From the NCBI GenBank assembly GCA_964474085.1, contig CAYYRJ010000015.1, forward strand, positions 1-60,353: DNA of 60,353 nt. The letters run 5' to 3'. Under the pieces are notes generated by a model that saw only the letters and a program-made list of their open reading frames with translations, did not search any database and was not told the origin of the DNA. The translations under genes and the position numbers were made by a program. This DNA comes from an uncultured Planctomycetales bacterium. Lineage in GTDB: Bacteria > Omnitrophota > Gorgyraeia > Zapsychrales > JANLHA01. Positions 2,807-55,126 of the stretch are shown one piece after another (within the stretch, counting starts at the first letter, position 1; the number at the start of each line of letters is the position of its first letter).

Positions 2807-5482
2807 ATGCCCAACAGTGCTCAAAAAAATACCGCAGTCGAGGAAATCGAGATACAAGAATGGCTTACGTCGCTGGAATATGTCCTTAAACACGGCTCTA
2901 AAGAGCAGGCGCAACGGATTTTGCAGCAGCTGCAGATTAAGGCCCAAGAAGCTGGCGTCACCCTCCCTTTTGCTGTTAACACACCCTATGTCAATACGAT
3001 AACCCCTGAAAAACAACCGCCCTATCCGGGCAATCGCGAAATCGAACGGCGCATCAAAAGTTTGATCCGCTGGAACGCGATGGCCATGGTCATACGCGGC
3101 AATCAGGCCGAAAACGGCATCGGTGGGCATATTTCAACTTTTGCCTCGTCGGCTACTTTGCTCGAGGTTGGATTTAACCATTTCTTTCGTGGCCAGACCA
3201 AAGATTTTTGCGGCGACTTTGTTTACTTCCAAGGCCACGGTTCGCCGGGCGTTTATAGCCGCGCTTTCGTCGAAGGCCGTTTGACCGAAGAGCATCTGAT
3301 TAATTTCCGACGCGAACTGGCAACAGGCGGCGGACTTTCGTCTTATCCGCATCCATGGCTTATGCCGAATTTCTGGCAATTTCCGACCGTCTCGATGGGT
3401 CTGGGACCTATCATGTCAATTTATCACGCCCGCTTTAACCGCTATCTTGAAGACCGTGGGCTTAAAGCCAAAGACGATCACAAAATTTGGGTTTTTATCG
3501 GCGACGGCGAATGCGACGAACCGGAAACCTTAGGCGCCATCACCATGGCTTCGCGCGAAAAGCTGGACAATCTTATTTTTGTTATCAACTGCAATCTTCA
3601 GCGCTTAGACGGTCCGGTGCGGGGCAACGGCAAAATGATTCAAGAGCTTGAAGCGATTTTTCGCGGTGCACAATGGAACGTGATTAAGGTCATCTGGGGC
3701 AACGATTGGGACCCGCTTTTAAACAAAGATACCGAAGGCCTTTTAGTCAAACGTATGGGCGAAGTTGTCGACGGACAATACCAAAAATATTCGGTTGAAA
3801 GCGGTGAATATATCCGCAAAGATTTTTTTGGCAAAAACCCAAAACTTTTGGATATGGTCAAGCCGCTGTCGGACGAAACCCTGCGCAAAATGAAACGCGG
3901 CGGGCACGATCCCGAAAAAGTCTATGCCGCCTACAAGGCTGCTGTGGATTTTAAAGGAGCCCCGAGTGTTGTCATCGCCAAAACAATCAAAGGCTACGGT
4001 TTAGGCGAAAGCGGTGAGGGCAAAAACATTTCACATCAGCAAAAGAAACTCAACGAAGATGAGCTCAAAGAATTTCGTTCGCGCTTTAATATCCAGATTT
4101 CGGATGAAGATGTCGCTAAAACGCCATTCTTTCGCCCGCCGGAAGATTCGCAAGAGATGAAATATTTGCGTGAACGCCGTCAGGCTTTAGGCGGGAATGT
4201 TCCTTCCCGACGGGCAACCAACACCGCTTTACAAACGCCCTCTGAAGAACTCTTTGAAGAATTTTATAAAGGCACCGAAGGCCGCGAAGTTTCAACGACG
4301 ATGGCCTATGTGCGGATTTTGACCAAACTTTTAAAAGATGAATCTTTAGGCAAACTGATTGTCCCCATTATTCCCGACGAAGCGCGCACGTTTGGAATGG
4401 AAGCGCTGTTTCGCCAATGCGGGATCTATTCGCACGTCGGCCAACTGTATGAACCGGTAGACAAAGACAGCTTGCTTTACTACAAGGAAGCGACAGACGG
4501 ACAAATCCTCGAAGAAGGCATTAACGAAGCCGGCGCCGTTTCCTCTTTCATCGCCGCCGGGACCGCTTACTCAACACAGGGAATAAACACCATTCCTTTC
4601 TATACGTATTACTCGATGTTTGGACCGCAACGCATTGGGGACTTAATCTGGGCAGCCGCCGACATGCGTTGCCGCGGATTTCTCGTGGGGGCCACTTCCG
4701 GTCGTACGACGTTAAACGGCGAAGGCTTGCAACATCAAGACGGGCACAGTCCGCTTATCCTTTCTTCGGTTCCGACGTGTTTGGCGTATGACCCGGCTTT
4801 TGCGTATGAATTAGCGGTTATTATTCGTCACGGGATTTATCGGATGTACGAAAAGCAGGACAGCGTTTTTTATTATCTTTCGATCGGCAATGAAAACTAT
4901 TCGATGCCGCCTATGCCCGCCGGCGTTAAAGACGGCATCATTAAGGGCATGTATAAATTTAAAGCGACGGCCAAAAAGGGAGCGACTTTACGCGCCCAGC
5001 TCTTTGGCAGCGGGGCGATCATGAACCAAGTCTTAGACGCCCAAAAGATCCTCGAAGAAAAATACAATGTCGGCACCGACGTTTGGAGCGTGACTAGCTA
5101 TAACGAAATCCGCCGCGAAGCGCTCGAAGCCGAACGATGGAATACGCTTCATCCTTTAGAAACGCCGAAAGTGCCCTACGTGACTAGTTTACTCGAAAAA
5201 GAAGACGGTGTTTTTGTCGCCGCCTCTGATTATATGAAAGCAATGCCCGACTCGGTCAGCCGCTGGTTTCCACGCAAGCTTGTTTCGCTTGGCACCGACG
5301 GATTTGGACGCAGCGAAAGCCGGCGTGCCTTGCGCGACTTTTTTGAAGTCGACAGCCGCCATATTGTTTATGCGACTTTAGGCAGTTTGTATAAAGAAAA
5401 AAAGATTGGCGCCGACGTCCTTAAAGCCGCGGCCAAAGACTTGAGCATCAATCCGGATAAACTCAATCCGATGATCAGCTGA
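2807..5482 (+). CDS. aceE: Pyruvate dehydrogenase E1 component, homodimeric (AceE) type
   Basis: 891 aa, which is the AceE-type length. Thiamine-diphosphate motif region (GDGECDEPE..NCNLQRLDG) and an AceE-like N-terminus. Confidence 0.93.
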   Translation: MPNSAQKNTAVEEIEIQEWLTSLEYVLKHGSKEQAQRILQQLQIKAQEAGVTLPFAVNTPYVNTITPEKQPPYPGNREIERRIKSLIRWNAMAMVIRGNQAENGIGGHISTFASSATLLEVGFNHFFRGQTKDFCGDFVYFQGHGSPGVYSRAFVEGRLTEEHLINFRRELATGGGLSSYPHPWLMPNFWQFPTVSMGLGPIMSIYHARFNRYLEDRGLKAKDDHKIWVFIGDGECDEPETLGAITMASREKLDNLIFVINCNLQRLDGPVRGNGKMIQELEAIFRGAQWNVIKVIWGNDWDPLLNKDTEGLLVKRMGEVVDGQYQKYSVESGEYIRKDFFGKNPKLLDMVKPLSDETLRKMKRGGHDPEKVYAAYKAAVDFKGAPSVVIAKTIKGYGLGESGEGKNISHQQKKLNEDELKEFRSRFNIQISDEDVAKTPFFRPPEDSQEMKYLRERRQALGGNVPSRRATNTALQTPSEELFEEFYKGTEGREVSTTMAYVRILTKLLKDESLGKLIVPIIPDEARTFGMEALFRQCGIYSHVGQLYEPVDKDSLLYYKEATDGQILEEGINEAGAVSSFIAAGTAYSTQGINTIPFYTYYSMFGPQRIGDLIWAAADMRCRGFLVGATSGRTTLNGEGLQHQDGHSPLILSSVPTCLAYDPAFAYELAVIIRHGIYRMYEKQDSVFYYLSIGNENYSMPPMPAGVKDGIIKGMYKFKATAKKGATLRAQLFGSGAIMNQVLDAQKILEEKYNVGTDVWSVTSYNEIRREALEAERWNTLHPLETPKVPYVTSLLEKEDGVFVAASDYMKAMPDSVSRWFPRKLVSLGTDGFGRSESRRALRDFFEVDSRHIVYATLGSLYKEKKIGADVLKAAAKDLSINPDKLNPMIS

Positions 5483-5488
5483 TTTTCT

Positions 5489-5524
5489 GTAGGGAACGGT
5501 TTCAAACCGTTCCCTACCATAAAA
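5489..5524. repeat. 36-nt hairpin repeat GTAGGGAACGGTTTCAAACCGTTCCCTACCATAAAA, copy 1
   Basis: 14-bp perfect stem (GTAGGGAACGGTTT/AAACCGTTCCCTAC). Identical 36-mer at 6227-6262. Sits just after the aceE stop. Confidence 0.9.
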
Positions 5525-5529
5525 TAAAA

Positions 5530-6207
5530 ATGAATTCTAGCCGAGGGTTCACTATGTTAAAGAAATGCTGGGGCATTGTGTTGTGGGGACTAGTATTTTT
5601 ATTTTTGGGAATTCAAATATTTAGTTTACAAGTTTACTATGCACGAGGTGTTGATGGACGAGAGAAATCCTTTAGTAGTGAGATCCCACAATATTTTGCA
5701 AAACTGGAGTTAATTAAAAAAAACACTGCAAATATAGACGTTCAAAAACAGTTTCCCCAGCTTGAAAACGAATGCTCTACACGTTTAATTACTTTTCAAA
5801 ATTTATTACGCAAAGCGCATGTCTTTAAGTTTTACTTTCCCATCGTGGGAATTATCTGCATACTGGCAGGGCTAGGCTTAATTTTGCGCATCGAAATTGC
5901 TCGCAAAATAGCTGGAATCCTCCCAGTAATATTAACTGCAGGATCTCTTCTTACTATCAATATCGCACTAGATCTAAATCGCGATGGAGGACGCTTAGGT
6001 AAAATTGATAGCGCTATCAATTGTTACCTTAAAAATGAAGCTTCTGTACCGGCATGCGGCACATACCTTAACGATGAAGATTTTAAAATTCATGATTCTA
6101 AAACTTATTTAGAAGCATCTTTGCCAATTGCAGTTGCTGGAATTTTATTTTCTGGAATTGCCATCTGGTATTTTTCACGCAAAAAGATTAAGGAACAGTT
6201 TAGATAA
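5530..6207 (+). CDS. Hypothetical 4-TM membrane protein inserted between aceE and aceF
   Basis: 225 aa and AT-rich. N-terminal TM helix, a ~70-aa polar segment, two central TM helices and a C-terminal TM helix ending WYFSRKKIKEQFR. Same architecture and C-terminal motif as ORF 49025-49708. Confidence 0.65.
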   Translation: MNSSRGFTMLKKCWGIVLWGLVFLFLGIQIFSLQVYYARGVDGREKSFSSEIPQYFAKLELIKKNTANIDVQKQFPQLENECSTRLITFQNLLRKAHVFKFYFPIVGIICILAGLGLILRIEIARKIAGILPVILTAGSLLTINIALDLNRDGGRLGKIDSAINCYLKNEASVPACGTYLNDEDFKIHDSKTYLEASLPIAVAGILFSGIAIWYFSRKKIKEQFR

Positions 6208-6226: not shown

Positions 6227-6262
6227 GTAGGGAACGGTTTCAAACCGTTCCCTACCATAAAA
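6227..6262. repeat. 36-nt hairpin repeat, copy 2
   Basis: Identical to 5489-5524. Sits just after the stop of the inserted membrane gene. Confidence 0.9.
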
Positions 6263-6279
6263 CAACAAAGGATTTTTTT

Positions 6280-7587: not shown

Positions 7588-7680
7588 TTCTAGCCGATGA
7601 GGGAAGTTCTTTTTACGGCGAATAGCGCCATAGAGGCGCAAAACAAATGAGCCTAAAAAGGACTTCCCGATTCGGCAGAA
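7588..7680 (+). repeat. E-family structured palindromic element, short form (E1)
   Basis: TTCTAGCCGATGAGGGAAGTTCTTTTTACGGCGAAT-AGCGCC-ATAGA-GGCGC-AAAACAAA-TGAGCCTAAAAAGGACTTCCCGATTCGGCAGAA. Nested complementary arms and the shared GGCGAAT...TGAGCC core. Lies between aceF and lpd. Confidence 0.75.
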
Positions 7681-14553: not shown

Positions 14554-14566
14554 TTTGTTTTTCCTT

Positions 14567-14608
14567 AACTGCCCCCCCTCTTTAAAAAAGAGGGGATTAA
14601 GAGGAGTT
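14567..14608 (+). repeat. R-family hairpin-plus-tail repeat (R1): CCCCTCTTT-AAAAAA-GAGGGG + ATTAAGAGGAGTT
   Basis: Same unit recurs at 15839-15874, 31683-31717 (inverted), 31762-31796 and 42948-42982 (inverted, inside lolD). Variants occur at 48966-49009 and 49734-49765. Confidence 0.85.
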
Positions 14609-15789: not shown

Positions 15790-15838
15790 TGCTTTGCCCT
15801 TTCGTTTATATTTTAAAATTAGGGTAGTGTCATAAATT

Positions 15839-15874
15839 CCCCCTCTTTATTTAAAGAGAGGGTTAGGGGGAGTT
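15839..15874 (+). repeat. R-family repeat (R2): CCCCCTCTTTATTTAAAGAGAGGG + TTAGGGGGAGTT
   Basis: Hairpin plus tail. Directly downstream of the pyrE stop. Confidence 0.8.
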
Positions 15875-25110: not shown

Positions 25111-26112
25111 TCACCGTTTTAGACTTTTCTCTGTGATAATCGCCGTAATAAGCTCGTGCGGGGTCACGTCAAATGCCGGGTTAAAAACTTTAATACCCTT
25201 TGGCGCCGTCGGGACAGAGGCAAAACACGCAACTTCCTCACTCTTGCGTTCTTCGATCACAATGCCATCACCAGTTTTTGTTGTCGCATCAAACGTCGAG
25301 CGCGGCGCAACAATATAAAATGGAATCTTGTGATGCTTGGCTAAAACTGCAAGACTATACGTGCCGATCTTGTTCGCTGTGTCGCCATTTAACGCGATGC
25401 GGTCCGCACCAGCAAAAACAGCGTCGATCTTGCCCTGTTTCATCAGGGTTGCGGCCATGCTGTCGCAAATCAAGGTCGTGTCGATTTTCGCACGCAACAA
25501 TTCCCAGCACGTCAACCGCGCTCCCTGCAAAAGCGGACGCGTTTCACAACTATAAACTTTAAACGACTTGCCCGCTTCTTTGGCCGCATAAAAAACGCCT
25601 AAAGCCGTTCCGTAATCGACGGTCGCCAAAGCGCCCGCGTTGCAAATCGTTAAATACGTCCCGCCCTTTTTGATAAATTTCGCGCCATGCTTGCCCATTT
25701 GCCGGCAAACGCGCCGGTCCTGCTCATAAATTTCCAGCGCCTTTTTTTCTAAAAGTTTTTTTAACTCTCCAACCGTAGCCGACGGATGCGCGCGAGTAAC
25801 TGTTCGCATTTCTGCAAGAACATTAAAAAGGTTAACCGCCGTCGGGCGGGATGTGCCAATATAATCACAAACTTCGCTTAACTTCTGCTCAAATTGCCGA
25901 CGATCCGAACTTTTGAAATTCTTAATACCTAACAAAACGCCAAAGCCAGCGGCAACACCAAGTGCCGGCGCGCCGCGCACCTGCAAAGTTTTGATCGCCT
26001 GCCAGAGCGTTTTAACGTCGGAGCACGTAATGTATTTTAACTTCGTCGGAAGCAGCGTCTGGTCAATGAGTCTGACAACGCCTTTAGACCATGTGAGTGT
26101 TGGAGGATTCAT
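25111..26112 (-). CDS. mtnA: S-methyl-5-thioribose-1-phosphate isomerase (eIF-2B alpha/beta/delta-like family)
   Basis: LIDQT.LP, VRGAPA.GV.A, TRPTAVNL, GADRIA.NGD.ANKIGTY and PAFD.TP motifs. Confidence 0.85.
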   Translation of the reverse strand: MNPPTLTWSKGVVRLIDQTLLPTKLKYITCSDVKTLWQAIKTLQVRGAPALGVAAGFGVLLGIKNFKSSDRRQFEQKLSEVCDYIGTSRPTAVNLFNVLAEMRTVTRAHPSATVGELKKLLEKKALEIYEQDRRVCRQMGKHGAKFIKKGGTYLTICNAGALATVDYGTALGVFYAAKEAGKSFKVYSCETRPLLQGARLTCWELLRAKIDTTLICDSMAATLMKQGKIDAVFAGADRIALNGDTANKIGTYSLAVLAKHHKIPFYIVAPRSTFDATTKTGDGIVIEERKSEEVACFASVPTAPKGIKVFNPAFDVTPHELITAIITEKSLKR

Positions 26113-26128
26113 AATTTATATTTATGAA

Positions 26129-26240
26129 GGGTGGGTGAAAGTCCGAAGGCGAATCGGAACGCAGCCCCGATTTTCTCCCGCCGTAAGGCGGGACATCCAC
26201 CGGGGACCGTTTCTTGAGCCAGAGGACTTTGACCCACCCC
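26129..26240 (+). repeat. E-family structured palindromic element, long form (E4, type copy)
   Basis: GGGTGGGTGAAAGTCC-GAAGGCGAATCGGAACGCAGCCCCGATTTTCTCCCGCCGTAAGGCGGGACATCCACCGGGGACCGTTTCTTGAGCC-AGA-GGACTTTGACCCACCC. Four nested stems. The core recurs at 33336-33453 and 54948-55057. Confidence 0.8.
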
Positions 26241-26244
26241 TGAA

Positions 26245-27729
26245 TTATATTTCAAGCCGCGGGAAAAGCGGTTCACCGATTTTAATAATATCGCCGCTAA
26301 ATTGTTCCTTAATTTTTTTCGACGTCGACGGCATAAAGGGATCGATCGCATCGGCACTAAACTTAAGCACAGCCACAATAATCCCTAAAAAATTCTCAAC
26401 CTCAGCCTGTTTGCCTTCTTTTTTTAGCTGCCACGGCTTGACCTGCTCGACAAATTTATTGGCCGCACCGATCAAATCCCAAATTTCGCCTAAATATTCA
26501 TTAAACTTAAAGTTTTCGATCAAATCCAGATTTTGTTTTGGATCACTGAGGAACTTCGCTAAAATCGGGCTGTCGACCCCTTGCGGCACCTGCAAAGATG
26601 GATTCTGCGGAATCTTGCCGTCAACATATTTAAGAATCATGTTCGACGTGCGATGGACCAAATTGCCAAGATCATTGGCCAAGTCCCCGTTAAAACGTTT
26701 TTCAAAAGAATCCGTCGAAAAATTCCCGTCCGCACCAAAGGGCACATCGCGCATCAAAAAATACCGAAACGCATCAACCCCATATTTTTCGACCATCTCA
26801 ACCGGATCGACGACATTGCCCAAAGACTTAGACATCTTGACCTCGCCCATTTTCCACCAACCGTGAGCAACAATCTGTTTTGGCATAGGCAGTCCTGCAG
26901 CATGCAGCATAATCGGCCAATAAATCGCGTGCTGACGAATAATGTCCTTGGCCATCAAATGCACATCGGCCGGCCAAAAAGCGTCAAACTTCTTCTTGTC
27001 GTCGACAAAACCAATCGCGCTGATGTAATTGACCAGCGCATCAAACCACACATAAGTGACATGTTCGCGATCAAAGGGGACTTCAATGCCCCAATTAAGA
27101 CGAGACTTAGGACGAGAAACACAAAGATCCGTGAGCGTATTGTTTTCCAAAAAACCCACAACCTCGTTATACCGCGTCTGCGGAAACACAAAGTCCGGGT
27201 GGTCTTTTAAATATTGCAAAAGCCAGCCCTGGTGTTTCGATAACTTGAAAAAATAATTCTTTTCTTTAATAAACTCAACCGCCCGCCCACAGTCCGGGCA
27301 TTTTCCGTCGACAATCTGAGACTCCATCCAGAATGTTTCATCCGGCACGCAGTACCAGCCGCCGTATTCTCCTGCATAAATTTCATCATTGCTTTTAAGG
27401 ATTTCCCAAAACTTTTGTACCGCCGCAATATGCCGCGGCTCTGTAGTCCGGATAAAATCATCGTTAGAAATATTAAGCGTAGCCCAAAGATTTTGAAATT
27501 GCGGGGAAATGCGGTCGGTAAATTCTTTGGGCGTTAAATTTAGTTCACTGGAGGCTTTCTGGATTTTTTGCCCGTGCTCGTCGGTGCCGGTTAAAAAATG
27601 CACCTGCGCGTTTTGACTGCGATAAAAACGGGCTAGACAATCCGCGGCAATGGTCGTATACGCATGACCGATATGCGGCTTGGCATTGACGTAATAAATC
27701 GGCGTCGTGATATAAAATTTAGTTTTCAT
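26245..27729 (-). CDS. metG: Methionine--tRNA ligase (short form without the C-terminal tRNA-binding domain)
   Basis: HIGH (PHIGHAY), KMSKS (KMSKSLGN), and zinc knuckle C..PD....CPDCG. I chose the start at MKTKFYITTP; the track ORF extends to 27762. Confidence 0.92.
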   Translation of the reverse strand: MKTKFYITTPIYYVNAKPHIGHAYTTIAADCLARFYRSQNAQVHFLTGTDEHGQKIQKASSELNLTPKEFTDRISPQFQNLWATLNISNDDFIRTTEPRHIAAVQKFWEILKSNDEIYAGEYGGWYCVPDETFWMESQIVDGKCPDCGRAVEFIKEKNYFFKLSKHQGWLLQYLKDHPDFVFPQTRYNEVVGFLENNTLTDLCVSRPKSRLNWGIEVPFDREHVTYVWFDALVNYISAIGFVDDKKKFDAFWPADVHLMAKDIIRQHAIYWPIMLHAAGLPMPKQIVAHGWWKMGEVKMSKSLGNVVDPVEMVEKYGVDAFRYFLMRDVPFGADGNFSTDSFEKRFNGDLANDLGNLVHRTSNMILKYVDGKIPQNPSLQVPQGVDSPILAKFLSDPKQNLDLIENFKFNEYLGEIWDLIGAANKFVEQVKPWQLKKEGKQAEVENFLGIIVAVLKFSADAIDPFMPSTSKKIKEQFSGDIIKIGEPLFPRLEI

Positions 27730-31672: not shown

Positions 31673-31682
31673 AAGATTCCTT

Positions 31683-31717
31683 AACTCCCCCTACCCCCCT
31701 CTTTAAAAAAGAGGGGG
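31683..31717 (-). repeat. R-family repeat (R3a, inverted orientation): AACTCCCCCTACCCCCCTCTTTAAAAAAGAGGGGG
   Basis: The tail lies left of the hairpin. Together with R3b it forms an inverted pair. Confidence 0.8.
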
Positions 31718-31761
31718 AAAAGGTTGAAGTAGACAACCATCTTGCATCTTTTAAATATTCT

Positions 31762-31796
31762 CCCCTCTTTAGTTAAAGAGGGGATTAAGGGGAGTT
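31762..31796 (+). repeat. R-family repeat (R3b): CCCCTCTTTAGTTAAAGAGGGG + ATTAAGGGGAGTT
   Basis: Hairpin plus tail, 44 nt from R3a. Lies between the cysE stop and the cysS start. Confidence 0.8.
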
Positions 31797-33316: not shown

Positions 33317-33335
33317 ATTTTCTTTTCCTCAAAAA

Positions 33336-33453
33336 GCATTGTTAAATTAAGTCTTTAAGGCGAATTTGAACGCAGCGCCGAATCTGTCGCGCCGTTAGGC
33401 GAGAATCCATCGGCGACCGTTCTTATGAGCCGTAAGACTTAATTTAACAATGC
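33336..33453 (+). repeat. E-family structured palindromic element, long form (E3)
   Basis: Perfect 20-bp outer stem GCATTGTTAAATTAAGTCTT/AAGACTTAATTTAACAATGC around GGCGAATTTGAACGCAGCGCCGAATCTGTCGCGCCGTTAGGCGAGAATCCATCGGCGACCGTTCTTATGAGCC. The right arm overlaps the last 5 codons of ispD. Confidence 0.8.
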
Positions 33454-34119
33454 TTCCGCTATTTTCAAATCTTCCGGAGTCGTCAATTTGATATTGCGAT
33501 ACTCGCCCTCAATCATTTTGACCTTCGCCCCAAAACGTTCGACCAAAAAAGCATCGTCGGTCGCCTCAACATCCAGGCCAATTCCCTGCCGATGCGCTTG
33601 AGTCAAAAGTTCATACGCAAAAACCTGCGGCGTCTGCGCTTCCCATAGGATGCTGCGGTCAAGCGTTGTGTCGATGACTTTTGCCAAAGGATCAATGCGC
33701 TTGATCGTCGGTTTTAACGGAACACCAACGACCACAGCTTTAGCGGTGTAACAGGTTTTGATCGCTTGCTCGATCACCTCACGCGAAACCAAAGGTCGCG
33801 CCCCGTCGTGAATAAGCACAAAATCGATATTAGGATCTAACACTTTTAAACCATTGCTCACCGATTCATAGCGGCTCTTGCCGCCAGCGACAACTTTGAT
33901 CGGTTTTTTAAACACATACTTTTTGATCACGTTTTCAAAGTCAGCGACCTTAAGAGCCGGGGCGACGACGACGACACCGTCAACCAAATCGCAACTGTCA
34001 AACATCTCAAGCGAATAAATGATCACTTCCTTGCCCTTTAGCAAAAGCAAAGGTTTTGGGACATCTGCCCCAAAACGTGTCCCGGCGCCTGCGGCAGGAA
34101 TAATGACATGTGTTTTCAT
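33439..34119 (-). CDS. ispD: 2-C-methyl-D-erythritol 4-phosphate cytidylyltransferase
   Basis: IIPAAG.G.R.......PK N-terminus, HD.ARP motif. 226 aa. Confidence 0.92.
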   Translation of the reverse strand: MKTHVIIPAAGAGTRFGADVPKPLLLLKGKEVIIYSLEMFDSCDLVDGVVVVAPALKVADFENVIKKYVFKKPIKVVAGGKSRYESVSNGLKVLDPNIDFVLIHDGARPLVSREVIEQAIKTCYTAKAVVVGVPLKPTIKRIDPLAKVIDTTLDRSILWEAQTPQVFAYELLTQAHRQGIGLDVEATDDAFLVERFGAKVKMIEGEYRNIKLTTPEDLKIAEALLN

Positions 34120-42614: not shown

Positions 42615-43334
42615 TTAAACCAATCGTCCGTCGCGCATTTTGACCACACGCCCGGAACGCCTGGCGATCTGTTCGTCATGGGTCACGATCACCAAGGTCT
42701 GCTTATTCTTTTTGTTTAATTCCATCAAAAGGTCAATGACCCCCTGCCCGCTTTCAAAATCTAAATTCCCCGTCGGTTCATCGCAAAAAAGGACCTTAGG
42801 CTCATTGATCAGCGCGCGCGCAATCGCCACCCGCTGCTGTTCTCCGCCGGAAAGTTCGTGCGGCTTGTGCTCATAGCGCTGACTTAAACCCACACGGTCT
42901 AACAGCGTCATCGCCTTGGCCTTAACCACGTCCATATCAATATTCTTAACTTCCCCTAACCCCCTCTTTAAAAAAGAGGGGGAACCTTTGTCAACGATCG
43001 CCGGCAAAATCACATTTTCAAGCGCCGTAAATTCCGGCAAGAGATGATAAAACTGAAAAATAAATCCAACCTTCGCGTTTCGAAACGCCGCACGTTTTTG
43101 CGCGTTGATTTTATAAATATTTTCGCCTTCAAAAATGACATCGCCCTGCGCCGGATGGTCCAAGCCGCCCATAATATGCAAAAGTGTTGACTTGCCTGCG
43201 CCCGAAGGGCCAACAATAGCCACGACATCGCCTTGGGCGATCTTTAAATCAATCCCTTTGAGCACATGCACTTTTCCTGCGGGGTGATCATAATGTTTTT
43301 GCAGCGCAGCAACTTCGAGCATGAACGTGTCCAT
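42615..43334 (-). CDS. lolD: Lipoprotein-releasing ABC transporter ATP-binding protein (LolD-like) carrying a 15-aa repeat-derived insertion
   Basis: Walker A GPSGAGKST, signature LSGGEQQRVA, Walker B LFCDEPTGNLD. Adjacent to a LolC/E-type permease. Confidence 0.85.
   Translation of the reverse strand: MDTFMLEVAALQKHYDHPAGKVHVLKGIDLKIAQGDVVAIVGPSGAGKSTLLHIMGGLDHPAQGDVIFEGENIYKINAQKRAAFRNAKVGFIFQFYHLLPEFTALENVILPAIVDKGSPSFLKRGLGEVKNIDMDVVKAKAMTLLDRVGLSQRYEHKPHELSGGEQQRVAIARALINEPKVLFCDEPTGNLDFESGQGVIDLLMELNKKNKQTLVIVTHDEQIARRSGRVVKMRDGRLV
42948..42982 (-). repeat. R-family repeat (R4) embedded in-frame in lolD
   Basis: AACTTCCCCTAACCCCCTCTTTAAAAAAGAGGGGG on the plus strand. Translated on the minus strand as ..GSPSFLKRGLGEVK... 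Confidence 0.85.
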
Positions 43335-43500: not shown

Positions 43501-44724
43501 CTATTCATACCTTAACGCTTCAACCGGTTGGAGCTTAGCCGCACGGGCCGCCGGATAAAGCGTCGCCAAATACGTGATCACCATCGCCGCCGAAATAATA
43601 ATCAAAATATCTGCCAGCTTGATTTCAACGGGCACATGGTCAATCGAATAAATCTGCGCCGGGACCTTCACATACGTTTTTAAAATGTAGCTGATCAAGA
43701 CCCCGCTAACCAAACCCCAAAACGTGCCAATGGCGCCAATCAAAAGCCCCTGTTTCATAAAAATCCGGCGAATCGAACTAGCCGGCACGCCAAACGACAA
43801 CAAAATCCCGATATCGTGAATTTTACTCGTCACCGTCACAACGAGCGTACTGATAATATTAAACGACGCGACCAAAACCATCAGCGTCAAAATAATAAAC
43901 AAGCCCCACTTTTCGAGAAACAGCGCTTCGAACAAATTGCTGTTAATGTCAATCCACGTCTTGACCCGGTAGCTGTAGCCTAGCTGCGAAAAGATTTCTT
44001 TTTTGACGTCCTTGGCTTTTTCGGGATTGACGAGCTTGACCCCAATGCCGCTGACGGTCGTGTTCCCCAAATCAAAAATCTTTTGCGCGTGCGTCAATGT
44101 GATAAAAGAAAGGTTCATGTCATAATCGACCATGCCACTTTTAAAAATCCCGACGATCTTTAAGGTATATCGCCAGCCGCGGCCACTGATCCCCGAACCG
44201 GGCGCAATCACGGTCACCTCATCGCCCAAACTATACCCAAAATACCGCGCCAATTCCTCGCCGACAATAATGCCGCCGTCGGCTAAGTCTTCAATTTTTC
44301 CTTCGGTCAAATACTGACTGACCTTGGTGACGTTTTTTTCGGTTTTGGGATTAATCCCACGCACAATTTGGCTGACCGCGTGGCCTTCGTTCTCTAAAAA
44401 AACATTGCCCTGCACAAAAGGCGAACTGCTGATCACACCGGGAATTTGATTAAGTGTTTTTTGCACACTGGCAAAGTCACTGATGCCTGTTTCTTTTTCG
44501 ACGACGATGTGCGGGGTGGCCCCAATAATTTTTTCGCGCAAATTATTGCCAAAACCGGTCATAACCCCGGTCACGACAATAAGCGCCATGACGCCGACGG
44601 CAACCCCGGCTATAGAAATAAAATGCAAGAAGCCCAAAAATCCGCCCTTGCTTGATGACATATACCGGTAGCTGATCCAATTTTCGTAATTCAAAGCAAT
44701 TTTCTTTCTTTTTCTCTGCCCCAC
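43501..44724 (-). CDS. Lipoprotein-releasing system permease (LolC/LolE, FtsX/MacB-type)
   Basis: 407 aa. TM1, a MacB-like periplasmic domain, then a 3-TM FtsX domain. N-terminal RY(L/M)-type motif (ISYRYMSS). Confidence 0.85.
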   Translation of the reverse strand: MGQRKRKKIALNYENWISYRYMSSSKGGFLGFLHFISIAGVAVGVMALIVVTGVMTGFGNNLREKIIGATPHIVVEKETGISDFASVQKTLNQIPGVISSSPFVQGNVFLENEGHAVSQIVRGINPKTEKNVTKVSQYLTEGKIEDLADGGIIVGEELARYFGYSLGDEVTVIAPGSGISGRGWRYTLKIVGIFKSGMVDYDMNLSFITLTHAQKIFDLGNTTVSGIGVKLVNPEKAKDVKKEIFSQLGYSYRVKTWIDINSNLFEALFLEKWGLFIILTLMVLVASFNIISTLVVTVTSKIHDIGILLSFGVPASSIRRIFMKQGLLIGAIGTFWGLVSGVLISYILKTYVKVPAQIYSIDHVPVEIKLADILIIISAAMVITYLATLYPAARAAKLQPVEALRYE

Positions 44725-44830
44725 TCAGGCTGAGTCAGATGAGGAGGAATTTAATGATATTTGTCGACGATGAATTATCGTTTTTCGTTAAGAACATGAA
44801 ATTTTTAAATCATACATCACTTAAGCCTTG

Positions 44831-44853
44831 GATCCCTGCTTTCGCAGGGATGA
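44831..44853. repeat. Hairpin GATCCCTGC-TTTC-GCAGGGATG
   Basis: 8-bp stem. Related in sequence to the hairpin at 44926-44948. Confidence 0.7.
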
Positions 44854-44868
44854 CATTATCTCTTTTGC

Positions 44869-44932
44869 CATTCCCTCATGTTTCTGTCATTCCCTCATGT
44901 TTCTGTCATTCCCTCATGTTTCTGTCATTCCC
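44869..44932 (+). repeat. Tandem repeat, 19-nt unit CATTCCCTCATGTTTCTGT x3.4
   Basis: Three perfect units (44869-44887, 44888-44906, 44907-44925) plus a partial fourth that runs into the hairpin CATTCCCGC-GAAA-GCGGGAATCC (44926-44948). Confidence 0.9.
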
Positions 44933-44953
44933 GCGAAAGCGGGAATCCACTTT

Positions 44954-46417
44954 TCAAATTGCCCTTTCATCCGACCCTGCAAGCGGCTTTAACAGCGGAA
45001 ACAAAATCACTTCCCGTATCGTCGGAGAATCGGTCAAAAGCATAATCAGCCGATCAATGCCGATGCCAAGACCTCCGGCCGGCGGCATCCCGTATTCGAG
45101 CGCGTGAATAAAATCTTCGTCAATATTACGCAACCCTGTCTCCGTGTCATCCGTCAAATCTTCGAGTAAACGTGCCTTTTGCTCCTGCGGGTCATTTAGC
45201 TCTGAATACGCATTACCGACTTCCAGGCCCGCCACAAAACATTCAAACCGCTCGGAAATAAACGGATTGTCTTTCTTAGTTTTAGCCAAAGGACAAAGAA
45301 ACGTAAAATAATCGGTAAAGAAAACAGGGTTCATCGTCGCATCTTCGTCCAAAATATCCTCAACGATTTTCATGACCGCCGAGCGGGTCAAAGTCTCGAT
45401 CTTGCCGCGTCCGCCTTTGGCCTTGACCTTGTCTAACATTGTCTTGGCATCGTCGTCGGGATTAATGTCAAATTTGTCTTTGATCATTTTGGCAAACGAG
45501 CGGCGCTCCCAGGGCGGGGTAAAATCAATTTCCTTGCCCTGATAAGCGACTTTGTAAGAGCCGGTCAAAAGCTTCGCACTCTCGCTAATCAAGCCTTCCA
45601 TCAAATCCATCATGTCGTTAAAATCCCCGTAGGACTGGTAAGCTTCAAGCATCGTAAACTCAGGGTTGTGGCGCGTCGAGATTCCTTCATTGCGAAAATT
45701 GCGGTTAATTTCATACACACGTTCAAAACCACCGACGAGAAGGCGCTTCAAATAAAGTTCGGGAGCGATACGCAAATACACGTCCATATCATACGCATTG
45801 TGCTTGGAAACAAACGGACGGCCGCGAGCCCCTCCGGCCTGCTGCTGAAGCATCGGGGTTTCGACCTCCAAAAAGCCGCGGGTGTCCAGATAGTTGCGGA
45901 TAAAAGAAATCAGCTTCGTACGTTTGAGAAAAATTTCGCGGACGTTTGCGTTGGCAATCATGTCCACATAACGCTGACGGTAGCGAACCTCGACGTCCTT
46001 TAGGCCGTGCCATTTCTCCGGCAAGGTCATCAGCGACTTGGAGAGAACCGTAATTTTGGAAACCTTCACCGTTTCCTGCCCGGTCTTGGTCTTAAACAAA
46101 ACCCCGTCGACGCCGATAATGTCTCCAATGTCTAAACTGCCCACAATAGCAACGCCTTCTTCGCCGATTGTGCCCATATTAATGTAGAGCTGGATCTTTG
46201 AGGTCTGGTCGGCAAGATCCATAAAAATCGCTTTGCCGTGAGCGCGGTTGGCCAAAATGCGGCCCGCCAGCGTGACCGGCGTCTCTTCGACAAAATTTTG
46301 CAACACTTGCGCAATCGAGTGTGTCGGCAAAAAACGCCTGCCGTAGGGCTCAAGGCCTAAGGCCAAAAGCTTGTTGAGTTTTTCAATTCTAACCTGCTTT
46401 ATTTCATCAACTTCCAT
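44954..46417 (-). CDS. lysS: Lysine--tRNA ligase (class II)
   Basis: OB anticodon-binding N-domain and class II motifs (FLEVETP; YRIAPELYLKRL; GGLGIGIDRL). 487 aa. Confidence 0.93.
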   Translation of the reverse strand: MEVDEIKQVRIEKLNKLLALGLEPYGRRFLPTHSIAQVLQNFVEETPVTLAGRILANRAHGKAIFMDLADQTSKIQLYINMGTIGEEGVAIVGSLDIGDIIGVDGVLFKTKTGQETVKVSKITVLSKSLMTLPEKWHGLKDVEVRYRQRYVDMIANANVREIFLKRTKLISFIRNYLDTRGFLEVETPMLQQQAGGARGRPFVSKHNAYDMDVYLRIAPELYLKRLLVGGFERVYEINRNFRNEGISTRHNPEFTMLEAYQSYGDFNDMMDLMEGLISESAKLLTGSYKVAYQGKEIDFTPPWERRSFAKMIKDKFDINPDDDAKTMLDKVKAKGGRGKIETLTRSAVMKIVEDILDEDATMNPVFFTDYFTFLCPLAKTKKDNPFISERFECFVAGLEVGNAYSELNDPQEQKARLLEDLTDDTETGLRNIDEDFIHALEYGMPPAGGLGIGIDRLIMLLTDSPTIREVILFPLLKPLAGSDERAI

Positions 46418-53770: not shown

Positions 53771-53859
53771 GTTAACCGGGTAAGGGAATCTTTTTAAGGC
53801 GAATTACGCCTTAGAGGCGCGGAACAATTGAGCCTAAAAAGATTCCATAACCGGTTAAA
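53771..53859 (+). repeat. E-family structured palindromic element, short form (E2)
   Basis: GTTAACCGG-GTAA-GGGAATCTTTTTAAGGCGAAT-TACGCC-TTAGA-GGCGCG-GAACAAT-TGAGCCTAAAAAGATTCC-ATAA-CCGGTTAAC. Near-identical inner design to E1. Confidence 0.75.
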
Positions 53860-53886
53860 CTGAAATATCGTATCATTATAAAAATT

Positions 53887-54936
53887 TTACTTTGATATTT
53901 TTTCTTCCAGCTGTGCAATCCGTTTTTTCAAATCCAAAATAATTTCGACATAATGCGGCAAGCGCTGGACCATGGCATTAATTTTTTTAGCGTGTTCAAT
54001 GGGCTTGGCCGGAAAACCCCAATACACACTATCCGGCGGAATCGAATTGGGGACCCCTGATTTGGCCGCGACAATCGAATTTTTGCCGATCGTAATATGC
54101 CCGACTAATCCCGCTTGACCAGCCAAAGTCACATTGTCCTCTAACACCGTCGAGCCAGAAATCCCCGCCTGCGAAACAATCATACAGTTTTGACCCGTGC
54201 GGACATTGTGCGCAATCTGGACAAGGTTATCAATTTTGGTCCCGCGGCCAATGACCGTCCTGTCAAAACGCGCGCGATCAATGGCGACATTCGCGCCAAT
54301 CTCAACATCATCTTGGACCTCGACAATGCCCATCTGCGGAATTTTGACATTGACCCCTTTGACATTGGCAAAACCAAACCCGTCGCTGCCGATCACCGTC
54401 CCGCTGTGAACGATCACACGATTTCCTAAAAGAATCCGTTCCCTAATTGTGACATTCGGATAAATCAAGCAATCTTCGCCGATCTTTGTTTCGTACCCGA
54501 TAAACGCCAATGCGCAAATGACACTGTTGTCACCGACAACGACATTGTCTTCAATGACGACATACGGCCCTAAAGCAACATTTTTACCCAACGAAACATT
54601 TTTTCCGACAATCGCCGTCGGATGAATGCCCTCAAACGAAGGGGTGTCGCTTTTAAGAAAAATTTCTGCAATTTTTGAAAACGCCAGCGACGGATTCTCA
54701 ACGACTATCGCACAGAGCTTAAGCGCGTCGACGCCAGGGGCAACCAAAACCGCCGAAGCCTGTGTTTTTTCTAAAAGCGGCGCATACTTAGGGTTGGCCA
54801 AAAAAGTCAAGTCGCCAGCTTTGGCTTCCTTGATTCCGGATAAACCCGTAATCGCAAGCGAAGCGTCGCCGACGACACTGCCGCCAACCAAATCTGCAAT
54901 TTCTGATAAAGTTTTTTTCATTTTAGACATCATCAA
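53887..54936 (-). CDS. lpxD: UDP-3-O-(3-hydroxyacyl)glucosamine N-acyltransferase
   Basis: N-terminal uridine-binding domain (L.EIA...GG...GD), a long hexapeptide-repeat beta-helix and a C-terminal helix. 349 aa. Confidence 0.9.
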   Translation of the reverse strand: MMMSKMKKTLSEIADLVGGSVVGDASLAITGLSGIKEAKAGDLTFLANPKYAPLLEKTQASAVLVAPGVDALKLCAIVVENPSLAFSKIAEIFLKSDTPSFEGIHPTAIVGKNVSLGKNVALGPYVVIEDNVVVGDNSVICALAFIGYETKIGEDCLIYPNVTIRERILLGNRVIVHSGTVIGSDGFGFANVKGVNVKIPQMGIVEVQDDVEIGANVAIDRARFDRTVIGRGTKIDNLVQIAHNVRTGQNCMIVSQAGISGSTVLEDNVTLAGQAGLVGHITIGKNSIVAAKSGVPNSIPPDSVYWGFPAKPIEHAKKINAMVQRLPHYVEIILDLKKRIAQLEEKISK

Positions 54937-54947
54937 ACTTACTGTAA

Positions 54948-55057
54948 GGATTAGAAAATGTTCTTCGTCTCAAAGGAACGGTCCCCGGTAGATGTTCCGC
55001 CTGATGGCGGAAGAAAATCGGGGCTGCGTTCAATTCGCCGTCGAACATTTTCTAACC
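54948..55057 (-). repeat. E-family structured palindromic element, long form (E5, core on the minus strand)
   Basis: Reverse complement reads GGTTAGAAAATGTTC-GACGGCGAATTGAACGCAGCCCCGATTTTCTTCCGCCATCAGGCGGAACATCTACCGGGGACCGTTCCTTTGAGAC-GAA-GAACATTTTCTAATCC. Confidence 0.8.
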
Positions 55058-55073
55058 CTTTTATCATAACAAA

Positions 55074-55126
55074 CATATTGGGAAGGCTTTACCGGCTTTT
55101 GCATAAACGGCAACCTTCCCAATATG
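55074..55126 (-). terminator. Candidate terminator hairpin after skp (13-bp perfect stem CATATTGGGAAGG/CCTTCCCAATATG)
   Basis: On the minus strand the hairpin is followed by TTTGTTATG. The 27-nt loop is atypical for a canonical intrinsic terminator. Confidence 0.35.

Follow-up and report, generated by a model that had tools for sequence, protein, structure and literature searches.

The window, by which we mean the whole stretch of 60,353 nucleotides that was analysed, holds three long copies of a structured repeat, here called E, and two short relatives, S1 and S2, each lying between two genes. E4, E3 and E5 have in common a core of about 75 nt, built of four nested helices (H1 to H4) and a tandem G·A junction, and are closed by outer stems of 15-22 bp that are unrelated between copies. 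The elements and their parts are located as follows.

26129 to 26240, plus strand: complete E4, flanked on the minus strand by the metG stop (26245-26247) and the mtnA start (26110-26112); its E-sense runs antisense to these two genes
26129 to 26144, plus strand: E4 5' outer arm GGGTGGGTGAAAGTCC, pairing with 26224-26239 with one G/G mismatch
26148 to 26220, plus strand: E4 core, H1 to H4; 81.5 bits with the covariance model
26224 to 26240, plus strand: E4 3' outer arm GGACTTTGACCCACCC(C), partner of the 5' arm
33334 to 33455, plus strand: complete E3, between ispD and ispF (both minus strand)
33334 to 33355, plus strand: E3 5' arm, which repeats the ispD 3' end perfectly in inverted form
33359 to 33431, plus strand: E3 core, with CGCCGA/TCGGCG as H3; 85 bits with the covariance model
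33434 to 33455, plus strand: E3 3' arm, identical with the end of ispD on the minus strand, ancestral coding DNA
54946 to 55060, minus strand: complete E5, between skp (ompH) and lpxD; its E-sense is the strand of the genes
54967 to 55039, minus strand: E5 core, junction GGC/GAC with a G·A in H1; 79.9 bits with the covariance model
7601 to 7668, plus strand: S1, short relative, between a 2-oxoacid dehydrogenase E2 gene and lpd
53771 to 53860, plus strand: S2, short relative, between lpxD and lpxC-fabZ; junction at 53798-53834

The positions of the three long copies agree within 2 nt with those given in a preliminary description of this DNA, which had spoken of five or six copies where the window holds three long ones and the two short relatives. 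The whole repeat measures about 115 bases, some 95 nt of which form the conserved unit. From the outside inwards this unit consists of a semi-conserved inner stem (AARTCY/RGAYTT), a purine-rich internal loop of 2-3 nt, H1 with 3-5 bp, the tandem G·A/A·G junction, three further helices and a tetraloop. The copies fold into the outer stem, GGC/GCC, GAACG/CGTTC, CCCCG/CGGGG (CGCCGA/TCGGCG in E3) and an apical tetraloop hairpin; in the E4 core, H1 (GGC/GCC) is followed by the tandem G·A/A·G with an A-U pair, H2 (GGAACG/CGTTTC), H3 (CCCCG/CGGGG) and H4 (TCCCGCC-GTAA-GGCGGGA). As a whole the element is a quasi-palindrome around a perfect apical inverted repeat of 6-7 bp, and its outer arms are nearly all Watson-Crick paired with few G·T pairs, the arms of E5, AAGGGTTAGAAAATGTTC and GAACATTTTCTAATCCTT, having one. 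Free energies of the E4, E3 and E5 folds lie between -54 and -66 kcal/mol, and against dinucleotide shuffles the three long copies reach z-scores of -6.3, -9.0 and -8.0. Over a stretch of 59 nt, the cores of E4 and E5 have 90% of their positions in common.

S1 has H1 and the tandem-GA junction of E (GGCGAAT...ATGAGCC, 7617-7653), its inner part being only a small hairpin, GCGCC-ATAGA-GGCGC; S2 matches S1 at 87% of positions along 53 nt and carries an extra copy-specific outer stem, GTTAACCGG.../...CCGGTTAAAC. Both match the long copies in the junction only. The junction pattern GGCGAA...TGAGCC is matched five times, three times with short and twice with long spacing, against a chance expectation of 0.32 matches in each of the two spacing searches. 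It recurs, but it is not constant as had been proposed, since E5 reads TGAGAC, and the supposedly constant internal loop ACATC(C/T)A reads AATCCA in E3. In the same way, the distal arms are copy-specific, as first described, but their innermost 6 bp or so are semi-conserved.

Covariation was assessed in a hand-registered alignment of 12 sequences from about nine independent loci. Both-sided changes were found in 9 of 25 pairs, against 4.6 in shuffles (none of 500 reached the observed value), and the covariation score was 0.214, against at most 0.059 with the partners slid. Twelve of 13 copies have the tandem G·A; in L227 the 3' G has become A and the 3' G·A is lost. The pair flanking the tandem G·A covaries between C-G, U-A and U·G. 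Together, the fold z-scores and the covariation bear out the original proposal of a recurrent multi-stem element with covarying pairs. Nor did a search of Rfam 15 assign E or S to a described RNA family, in agreement with what had been proposed from the sequence. The whole window gave no match at the gathering threshold and nothing on any E or S copy at E-values up to 10, and a 171-nt region searched with lax filters gave at best 17 bits (E 0.9-1.6), to unrelated families. An attC site, a group II intron domain V and a self-cleaving ribozyme were rejected, there being no Rfam signal and no defining motif, and so was an intrinsic terminator: no terminator was called on E4 or E3, and TTTTT follows the hairpin in gene direction at E3 only.

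Such a fold raises the question of whether the E copies are genes for a trans-acting small structured RNA, a component of a ribonucleoprotein transcribed in E-sense whatever the direction of its neighbours, in which the closing stem would serve for processing (for example by RNase III) or end protection and the G·A junction and loops would bind protein. We consider this unlikely, even though the base-pair covariation speaks for it and in none of 12 copies did the antisense fold surpass the E-sense fold in stability, L227 being the contrary case. On the E-sense strand, in operon-antisense copies as well, G·T wobbles number about 10-12 against about 2-3 A·C mismatches, a column-wise count that is suggestive only; G·U pairs in the minimum-free-energy folds of the two strands (20 against 27) are uninformative. 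The G·T excess hints that one specific strand may be the one that folds, which would favour the rival explanations over the one we prefer. Against a small RNA, L227 does without the 3' G·A, and a consensus-only scan for sigma-70-like promoters found none in E-sense in, at or upstream of E4 or E3.

The E family is confined to a narrow Omnitrophota clade, with real copies in Omnitrophota metagenome-assembled genomes only, and occupies eight intercistronic loci, all of them between co-directional housekeeping genes. All copies were recovered by exact core patterns, which introduces an ascertainment bias. A 16-base core pattern hit 119 loci in genome contigs, all by chance and none of them real; a 22-base pattern gave six matches in JGI metagenome contigs, all by chance, and none in viral contigs; and the covariance model, to which the short S copies are invisible, yielded no additional or more distant members over 445 kb of Omnitrophota loci. 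The elements fill gaps of 120-130 nt between cistrons, and seven of the eight loci start no more than 14 nt past a stop codon. E3 overlaps such a codon, and in L214 the element supplies the C-terminus of BioDA. This tight packing also argues against a small-RNA gene. On the best reading, E has spread into gaps between co-directional housekeeping genes, usually 0-14 nt past the upstream stop.

Occupancy of these gaps changes between close species. At skp|lpxD, L226 has an empty site, with neither the core nor the arms of E5, and L225 has an unrelated hairpin element instead; the asnS-side copy of L225 has no counterpart at the orthologous site of the window; and the ispD|ispF gap contains four different elements across relatives. 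S2 has no counterpart in the orthologous gap of either L225, in which the two genes overlap, or L226, which contains another element there. In being acquired and lost among close species, E acts as a mobile intergenic palindromic repeat would, and it was an overstatement to call it the opposite of a MITE, although conserved terminal inverted repeats are indeed absent. A small-RNA gene would not be expected to come and go in this way, or to give up its gap to other hairpin families. No transposase or recombinase was found among the neighbours of the eight loci, and no RAYT gene near any E copy (within at most 10 kb around chosen proteins). Judged against the empty site of L226, E5 has imperfect direct repeats of some 16-18 nt on its flanks, and the other loci have short AT-rich matches only; a matched-versus-mismatched flank test for a target-site duplication gave a weak p of about 0.03. 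There are practical consequences for annotation: gene callers are misled by E elements, with MtnA N-termini running on through E4 besides the BioDA case, and metagenome assemblies break at them, as in the contigs of L012 and L228 that end inside an element (the end of the L012 contig carrying a partial E4 copy).

These genomes contain many unique and repeated hairpins directly past stop codons, and in one relative, L216, a second family follows the same design of a conserved junction with copy-specific stems. One might suppose, as the preliminary description did in its proposal of insertion into the loops of pre-existing hairpins, that the core is a small mobile element targeting the loops of older post-gene hairpins such as terminators. 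That the same gaps are repeatedly hit by different families would fit, and the inner E core could nest in an S-like hairpin, S copies matching E in the junction alone. We nevertheless regard this explanation as very doubtful, because the origin of the arms speaks against it. The 3' arm of E3 encodes GAA GCA TTG TTA AAT TAA, that is, E A L L N and the stop (stop codon at 33439-33441). The IspD C-terminus, ...AEALL-x-stop, is conserved in relatives at the protein and DNA level, and 17 close IspD relatives end in ...PEDLKIAE(A/V)(L/F)L plus one last residue that varies. In relatives that lack E3, the ispD|ispF gap contains no complement of the ispD end and no such hairpin. Since the ispD arm is ancestral and the hairpin is absent from E3-less relatives, the partner arm, which sits between the E3 core and the ispF ribosome-binding site, is an on-site inverted duplicate; the distal stem of E3 is an inverted copy of the adjoining ispD coding DNA, and insertion into a loop would still require this duplication. 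At the empty skp|lpxD site the E5 arms are missing together with the core, which speaks against a pre-existing hairpin there too, and these arms might have travelled with the element.

Each outer arm matches its own partner alone in 445 kb of related sequence, which excludes the arms as part of another repeat family and upholds the copy-specific distal closing helix of the original account. E3 is the one locus at which the origin of an arm by inverted duplication is directly demonstrated, one half of its stem being the exact reverse complement of pre-existing neighbouring sequence, as is typical of template-switch hairpins.

Comparison of orthologues shows that at ispD|ispF and at rny|ymdB the core has been turned round in place between its arms. 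At ispD|ispF, E-sense is antisense to the operon in the window and in L224, and sense in the orthologues L221 and L222; identical arms and E3-specific core features are kept while the orientation of the core is reversed. At rny|ymdB, L120 and L122 differ from L127 in core orientation, between arms that are homologous (12/17) with both-sided changes. Arms that hold the core either way round at these loci could be taken to favour insertion of the core into loops; the cores at the flipped loci, however, have locus-specific substitutions in common, which indicates one insertion followed by inversion and not two insertions. At both loci the loop has been inverted with the stems retained, which fits the pattern described in PMC8794818. 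Flips are rare, with about two events over about ten lineages, each some 0.4 synonymous differences per site apart. That copies occur in both orientations, as had been noted from the outset, is real, but at two loci it reflects in-place inversion of the core and need not mean independent insertions. GC skew is negative throughout the window, yet E3 and E4 lie on the plus strand and E5 on the minus strand; orientation set by the replication strand is ruled out by this one-sign skew with copies on both strands. The orientation of E is free relative to both transcription and replication. Freedom relative to the genes would suit a small RNA, except that the flanks which a promoter would need are unrelated between copies and are swapped when the core flips.

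Both orientations at two orthologous loci, and a function apparently independent of orientation with respect to transcription, would also be expected of a DNA-level site, either a cruciform or single-stranded hairpin for a structure-specific protein or a programmed inverton, with arms that aid extrusion and an enzyme-mediated inversion. Candidate binders would include a Y1/HUH transposase as in REPIN-RAYT systems, a recombinase, or a nucleoid or replication factor. The quasi-palindromic organization around the apical inverted repeat, the almost wholly Watson-Crick arms predicted by DNA-level symmetry, and the similarly designed second family in L216 all agree with such a site. Even so, we think it distinctly unlikely. 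Unrelated arms imply that a site-specific invertase does not recognize them, no recombinase or transposase adjoins any of the eight loci, scanning of E4 and E3, the two copies covered, revealed no promoter inside or next to them, and flips are too rare to resemble phase variation. Mixed orientation within one replichore speaks against a lagging-strand-specific single-stranded site, and the REP hallmarks of a 20-40 nt unit and a conserved GTAG are absent.

Resident E copies are under purifying selection. The E4 orthologue in L123 is identical at 112 of 112 positions, compared with 72-74% at the third codon positions of the flanking genes, and E3 orthologues are identical at 117-119 of 126 positions, flips included, compared with 58-61% in a synonymous-site comparison; an identity of 97% was also recorded among orthologous copies, against 58-61% for synonymous sites. 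Between E4 and its diverged orthologue in L227 the figures are 82% against 60-64%, with two compensatory changes in both arms, in which a T-A and a G-C pair have changed on both sides. The suggestion that the closing helix only needs to pair therefore holds in part: orthologous arms do show both-sided changes, but they are homologous and conserved in sequence. After a core flip the loops show 2-3 changes in about 25 loop nt, while synonymous sites have diverged by about 40%. Conservation of this degree goes beyond the usual for REP or MITE copies, which counts against the repeat reading preferred below, and a generic RNA role that any hairpin could fill fails to explain the conservation of the loops after flipping. 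A small RNA would account for it, the unpaired loops being conserved even with the core turned relative to the operon. Because the loops are conserved after flips, the core probably carries an orientation-independent, sequence-specific recognition site for an unnamed partner.

The explanation that we prefer, and hold with about even confidence, is that E is a lineage-specific intercistronic palindromic repeat of the REP/ERIC/Correia kind, retained by its host, whose arms are probably built and whose orientation is probably set by template switching. During replication the E hairpin would fold back on itself, and the polymerase would briefly copy the nascent or the opposite strand; this template-switch mutation would lengthen the stem, and the same process could invert the core between its arms. 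Such inversions would give copies facing both ways. There is documented evidence that template switching makes perfect stems, lengthens existing ones and turns loops round (Mönttinen and Löytynoja 2022, PMC8794818). It can by itself produce "compensatory" double changes without RNA-level selection (PMC8794818), which weakens the covariation as an argument for a small RNA. The weakest part of the preferred explanation, and one that we infer, is that the selected property is the very stable intercistronic hairpin itself, as an RNA processing, stability or termination barrier. A more specific possibility, which we put forward tentatively and think rather unlikely, is that E is not a decaying selfish repeat but a new class of host-maintained structured nucleic-acid module, either an RNA from one strand or a DNA hairpin or cruciform protein site, whose function depends on its sequence but not on how it is turned with respect to transcription or replication. 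If true, this module would show template switching growing a hairpin from coding DNA and flipping its interior in wild bacteria.

From a broader standpoint, E is a structured repeat family that had not been described before, and it comes from Omnitrophota, a phylum about which little is known. It offers a clean natural case of a perfect stem apparently arising from reverse-complement copying of a neighbour, here protein-coding DNA, and of a second process, the inversion of a hairpin interior with the stems retained, both of which are usually inferred only statistically. In palindromic DNA, "compensatory" changes and copy-specific helices can be mutational and need not reflect RNA-level selection, and the E example recommends caution to those who use covariation to establish RNA structure. 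At the same time, conservation of stem and loops in either orientation points to a real function, which is now testable.

Several known systems resemble E in part. A k-turn comprises a C-stem, a 3-nt bulge, tandem G·A/A·G pairs and an NC-stem. The tandem G·A of E (5'-C-GA-A / 5'-U-GA-G) is like that of tandem sheared G·A or k-turn sites of the L7Ae/YbxF type; a k-turn itself is excluded, because Watson-Crick pairs (H1 and A-U) directly flank the tandem G·A on both sides and there is no adjacent 3-nt bulge. Integron attC sites have R''/R' core sites (RYYYAAC ... GTTRRRY) at their ends and form cassette arrays of uniform orientation. In E, by comparison, GTTAGGC occurs only in the variable apical loop of E3, and the copies lie scattered, facing either way, through housekeeping operons. 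Invertons are invertible DNA switches with inverted repeats, such as fimS, hin and the Bacteroides promoters. E is similar in that its core is bounded by inverted repeats of 15-22 bp and is found in both orientations at one locus; it differs in that these repeats are not the same from locus to locus, so that no conserved recombinase site accompanies them, no invertase lies nearby, no internal promoter was found and flips are evolutionarily rare.

REPINs consist of 20-40 nt imperfect palindromes with a conserved 5' GTAG-like tetranucleotide, paired in inverted orientation. Like the REPIN-RAYT system, E is multi-copy, intergenic and maintained in a lineage, and its long imperfect hairpin is conserved on the inside; unlike that system, the E core is a single four-helix rod of 75 nt with no repeated REP unit and no GTAG. 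The wider group of REP/BIME, ERIC/IRU, BOX, Correia (CREE) and Rickettsia RPE elements has in common with E the multi-copy, hairpin-forming unit of about 100 nt, the location inside operons in either orientation, the variable presence in close relatives, the breaking of assemblies, and the overlap with or replacement of gene ends (the ispD stop carried by E3 and the BioDA C-terminus of L214). In contrast to this group, E is conserved inside and has locus-specific termini, with no clear terminal inverted repeat, target-site duplication or parent insertion sequence, and in contrast to a classical MITE its distal arms are locus-unique, only the innermost 6 bp or so being semi-conserved. E orthologues are also conserved far above synonymous sites, loops included, and in-place inversion is documented for them, which distinguishes them from REP and MITE copies. 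Bacterial intergenic palindromic repeats and MITE-like elements have been reviewed (PMC3184786, PMC2229807, PMC10969869).

The closest mechanistic parallel is with template-switch hairpins (PMC8794818, PMC5453318), in which a reverse-complement copy of neighbouring sequence yields a perfect stem, as in E3, stems are extended, loops are inverted with the stems kept, as in E3 and at rny|ymdB, and arms acquire multi-base "compensatory" changes. Most published cases concern rRNA and microRNA stems, with lengths from a few bases to some tens (PMC8794818; Löytynoja and Goldman 2017, PMC5453318), whereas the "loop" of E is a conserved, structured, multi-copy module of 80 nt in bacterial operons, to which the same mechanism would, judging from its sequence, have been applied.

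Element E, a hairpin-forming repeat of about 115 nt, is multi-copy, lineage-restricted, and gained and lost over time; the observation itself is solid. Its copies and short relatives in the window are the following.

26129-26240, plus strand: E4, long copy in the metG-mtnA gap
33334-33455, plus strand: E3, long copy in the ispD-ispF gap
54946-55060, minus strand: E5, long copy in the skp-lpxD gap
7601-7668: S1, short relative from the repeat finder
53771-53860: S2, short relative from the repeat finder

In all three long copies an outer stem of 15-22 bp is followed by a small internal loop. The core then comprises a 3-bp helix (GGC/GCC; GGC/GAC in E5), inside it a tandem G·A/A·G step with an A-U pair, inner helices GAACG/CGTTC and CCCCG/CGGGG (CGCCGA/TCGGCG in E3), and an apical tetraloop hairpin with a 6-7 bp stem. 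Free energies of the long copies are -54 to -66 kcal/mol, 6-9 SD below dinucleotide shuffles, and the repeat finder aligned the E4 and E5 cores as a 59-nt match at 90% identity. The recurrent multi-stem element of the preliminary description is thus present and folds as it proposed, with three long copies in place of the five or six claimed. What S1 and S2 have in common with these is limited to the GGCGAAT...TGAGCC junction, which encloses a small hairpin (five matches to GGCGAA...TGAGCC over two pattern searches, each with 0.32 expected by chance). Of the sequences described as constant, the ACATC(C/T)A loop does not extend to E3, whose 3' internal loop is AATCCA, nor the TGAGCC junction to E5, which has TGAGAC.

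Longer core patterns found real copies solely in Candidatus Omnitrophota MAGs, some labelled "uncultured Planctomycetales"; a 16-base core pattern gave chance matches only, and no copies were found in JGI metagenome or viral contigs. Further copies were obtained by fetching orthologous loci via IspD, LpxD and MtnA homologues, bringing the total to eight loci.

Loci carrying E, with its orientation relative to the flanking genes (L numbers, fetched loci of related Omnitrophota)
metG-mtnA: E4 in the window, L123, L227 and L012 (partial); antisense in all
ispD-ispF: E3; antisense in the window and L224, sense in L221 and L222
skp-lpxD: E5 in the window; sense
rny-ymdB: L120 and L122 antisense, L127 sense
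rodZ-like-miaB-like: L121; antisense
x-rph: L126; sense
bioDA 3' end: L214; antisense
asnS-like-x: L225; sense

Co-directional housekeeping genes flank E at all eight loci. It starts 0-14 nt past the upstream stop codon, or overlaps it, at seven of the eight, and ends 14-25 nt ahead of the next start codon at all of them. Searching 445 kb of Omnitrophota sequence with a covariance model of 12 copies brought up no others, and more distant Omnitrophota (CysS at most 66% identical) have ispD-ispF gaps of 5-50 nt or unrelated hairpins there. At L214 (7558-7680) the element is fused to the bioDA frame, arm (one half of the outer stem) and core encoding the last ~18 residues (NLGQTSRLKGTVPGGSST) and stop of the BioD-BioA fusion. 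Gene callers also extend the MtnA N-terminus of relatives by 26-29 residues through E4 (P0242, 359 aa; P0243, 362 aa; 333 aa in the window), and these longer N-termini (window region 26113-26240) are an annotation artefact.

Covariation was assessed on a hand-registered alignment of 12 sequences from ~9 independent loci, with N as padding, in which 89% of cells are paired. Both-sided changes occur in 9 of 25 pairs, against 4.6 in shuffles (none of 500 as high), and the covariation score is 0.214, falling to 0.059 or less with partners slid, so that the co-variation first noticed in a few copies is upheld with more. Numbering the core helices H1 to H4 from the outside to the apex, the H1 pair adjoining the G·A step occurs as C-G, U-A and U·G; CCCCG/CGGGG in H3 becomes CGCCG/CGGCG in E3 and CUCUG/CAGAG in L225; and H4 changes from C-G to U-A and from G-C to A-U. 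Double changes in palindromic DNA can, however, arise from template switching itself. Because copies were retrieved by exact core patterns, ascertainment accounts in part for GAACGCAGC, CCGA and GACCGTT being invariant.

The origin of the outer arms is clearest at E3. Each arm matches solely its own partner, which rules out another repeat family. The ispD-side arm of E3 consists of the last ispD codons and the stop (GAA GCA TTG TTA AAT TAA). Close IspD relatives (n = 17, 64-89% identical) likewise end ...PEDLKIAE(A/V)(L/F)L plus one final residue that varies, with GAAGCATTATTAGGATAA, GAGGCATTATTAGGGTAA or GAGGCGTTATTGGAATAA at the DNA level, so this arm is ancestral coding sequence. Relatives lacking E3 have no complement of the ispD end downstream of ispD; the second arm, which separates the core from the ispF ribosome-binding site, must therefore be an inverted duplicate made on site. 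Thus at least this one outer stem was copied, in inverted form, from neighbouring coding DNA. The copied part is the distal 11-12 bp, while the innermost ~6-10 bp (AARTCY/RGAYTT), semi-conserved among copies, probably belong to E itself.

Insertion into a pre-existing hairpin finds no support at the two testable loci, since E3-less relatives have no arm complement and the skp-lpxD site of L226 (LpxD 85%) is empty of both E5 core and arms. In L225 (89%) an unrelated hairpin family occupies the E5 spot. The two interpretations offered earlier, a structured module with any closing helix and insertion into hairpin loops, are each borne out only in part. E5 is flanked by imperfect direct repeats of ~10-18 nt over the lpxD start region (54920-55075, minus strand; GTTTATGAAAA), as is the unrelated element in L225 (4880-5020; compared with L226 3640-3665); these may reflect either a long target duplication or an ancestral duplication common to both. 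For E itself, no transposase gene turned up beside the eight loci, and its ends show neither terminal inverted repeats nor a consistent target duplication.

Both orientations were seen, as described, and cores have been inverted in place. In L221 and L222, whose IspD proteins are 87% and 85% identical to that of the window, the E3 ortholog keeps these arms and the E3-specific core features, with the between-arm segment, small TAA/GT loops included, reversed relative to the genes; the 97%-identical strain L224 is oriented as in the window. At rny-ymdB, where both flanking genes lie on one strand in L120, L122 and L127, the arms are homologous (12/17) with concerted changes in both, and the cores have lineage-specific features in common (GGT/ACC-type H1, a U-A sixth pair in H2), with L127 reversed. 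The two orientations therefore arise at least partly by flipping between E's own inverted repeats. Flips are rare (~2 events over ~10 lineages, each ~0.4 differences per synonymous site apart), which excludes rapid phase variation.

GC skew stays negative throughout the window (1-60353; -0.01 to -0.18) and nearly all genes from ~9.8 kb on are on the minus strand, placing the window within a single replichore; with E3 and E4 on plus and E5 on minus, orientation is therefore free of the replication strand. The E-sense strand, on which the core reads as described, folds at least as stably as the antisense in 12 of 12 copies; L227 does not follow this pattern. Isolated E-sense G·T wobbles number ~10-12 against 2-3 A·C (one ancestral A·C column set aside), an excess that extends to copies antisense to the operon and is a suggestive, not decisive, strand signal. 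Upstream of E4 and E3 in E-sense there is no sigma-70-like promoter, and neither copy has an intrinsic-terminator signature.

Resident copies are selectively maintained. E4 is identical at 112/112 positions between the window and L123, arms included (third codon positions 72-74%, first and second 94%), and 82% identical to L227 (third positions 60-64%), with two both-arm compensatory changes, some mismatches unrepaired and the 3' G of the G·A step lost in L227. E3 matches L221 and L222 at 119/126 and 117/126 (third positions 58-61%, first and second 91%), core differences falling at unpaired positions only, and this conservation persists across the inversion. Comparison with third codon positions therefore indicates that purifying selection acts on pairing and, to a lesser degree, on the sequence of the loops.

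Different hairpin families fill the same gaps in different relatives, which speaks for either a generic advantage of a stable hairpin just past a stop codon or a hotspot for one, and the E5, E4 and E3 gaps are insertion hotspots for several such families. Other hairpins and repeats are as follows.

Window 14559-14608, 15837-15874, 31680-31796, 42945-42984; L215-L217 10682-10830; L216 14460-14670: second abundant family of hairpin repeats, AACTCCCC...CCCCTCTTT-loop-AAAGAGGGG...GGGGAGTT, which in a relative takes up the ispD-ispF gap, the place of E3 in the window
Window 5486-5517 and 6227-6264: near-perfect 14-bp palindromes GTAGGGAACGGTTTCAAACCGTTCCCTAC on both sides of ORF 5530-6207, copies 90% identical; related hairpin at L216 7437-7465
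L225 4905-5010 (skp-lpxD gap), L216 17926-18040 (metG-mtnA gap), L219 10682-10878 (after ispD): another family, starting GTCATYGCGAG... in L225 and L216 and CCCATCGCGAG... in L219, there as repeated ~60-nt units up to the contig end
L216 3275-3400 and 8860-8965: two elements with a common conserved junction TCCCGTGCTCAAACAGTG...CAAACTCGYCCGGGA and copy-specific outer and inner stems, the design principle of E in an E-less relative
Window 44863-44932: three tandem 19-nt repeats (TTCTGTCATTCCCTCATGT) and small GC hairpins in the 44690-44965 gap past the asnS-like gene; the orthologous L225 gap has E instead
Window 55077-55123 (minus), L225 ~4838-4884, L226 ~3608-3652: conserved post-skp hairpin ATTGGGAAGG...CCTTCCCAAT, immediately upstream of where E5 inserted; stem identical in three species, loop different in L226

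A purely generic mRNA hairpin role fails to explain the conservation, because once an element has flipped, its loops appear in the mRNA as their complement. The selected role would instead combine a stable intercistronic hairpin with an orientation-independent recognition feature in the core, and E may act in trans as an RNA, serve as a site at the DNA level or be a hairpin repeat that has been domesticated. Stem growth and inversion would result from template-switch replication errors at the hairpin. Perfect stems, stem extension and loop inversion are all documented products of template switching (PMC8794818), and E displays both the pattern of template-switch-generated stems and that of loop inversion. 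The coding-derived arm, the in-place flips and the orientation-independent conservation carry the most weight.

Consistent with the earlier failure to place the core in any RNA class, Rfam 15 gave the element no match when the whole window was scanned, whether at gathering thresholds or with E relaxed to 10, nor with lax filters on the element alone, and no published description was found in the literature. E lacks the conserved termini of a classical MITE, the REP units and GTAG of a REPIN, the 3-nt bulge of a k-turn, and the common recombinase sites, invertase and promoter of a programmed inverton; it also fails the defining tests of attC sites and intrinsic terminators. The conservation of its orthologs is unusual by comparison with REP- or MITE-type repeats; in its way of working, E most resembles the intergenic palindromic repeats REP, ERIC, Correia and RPE.
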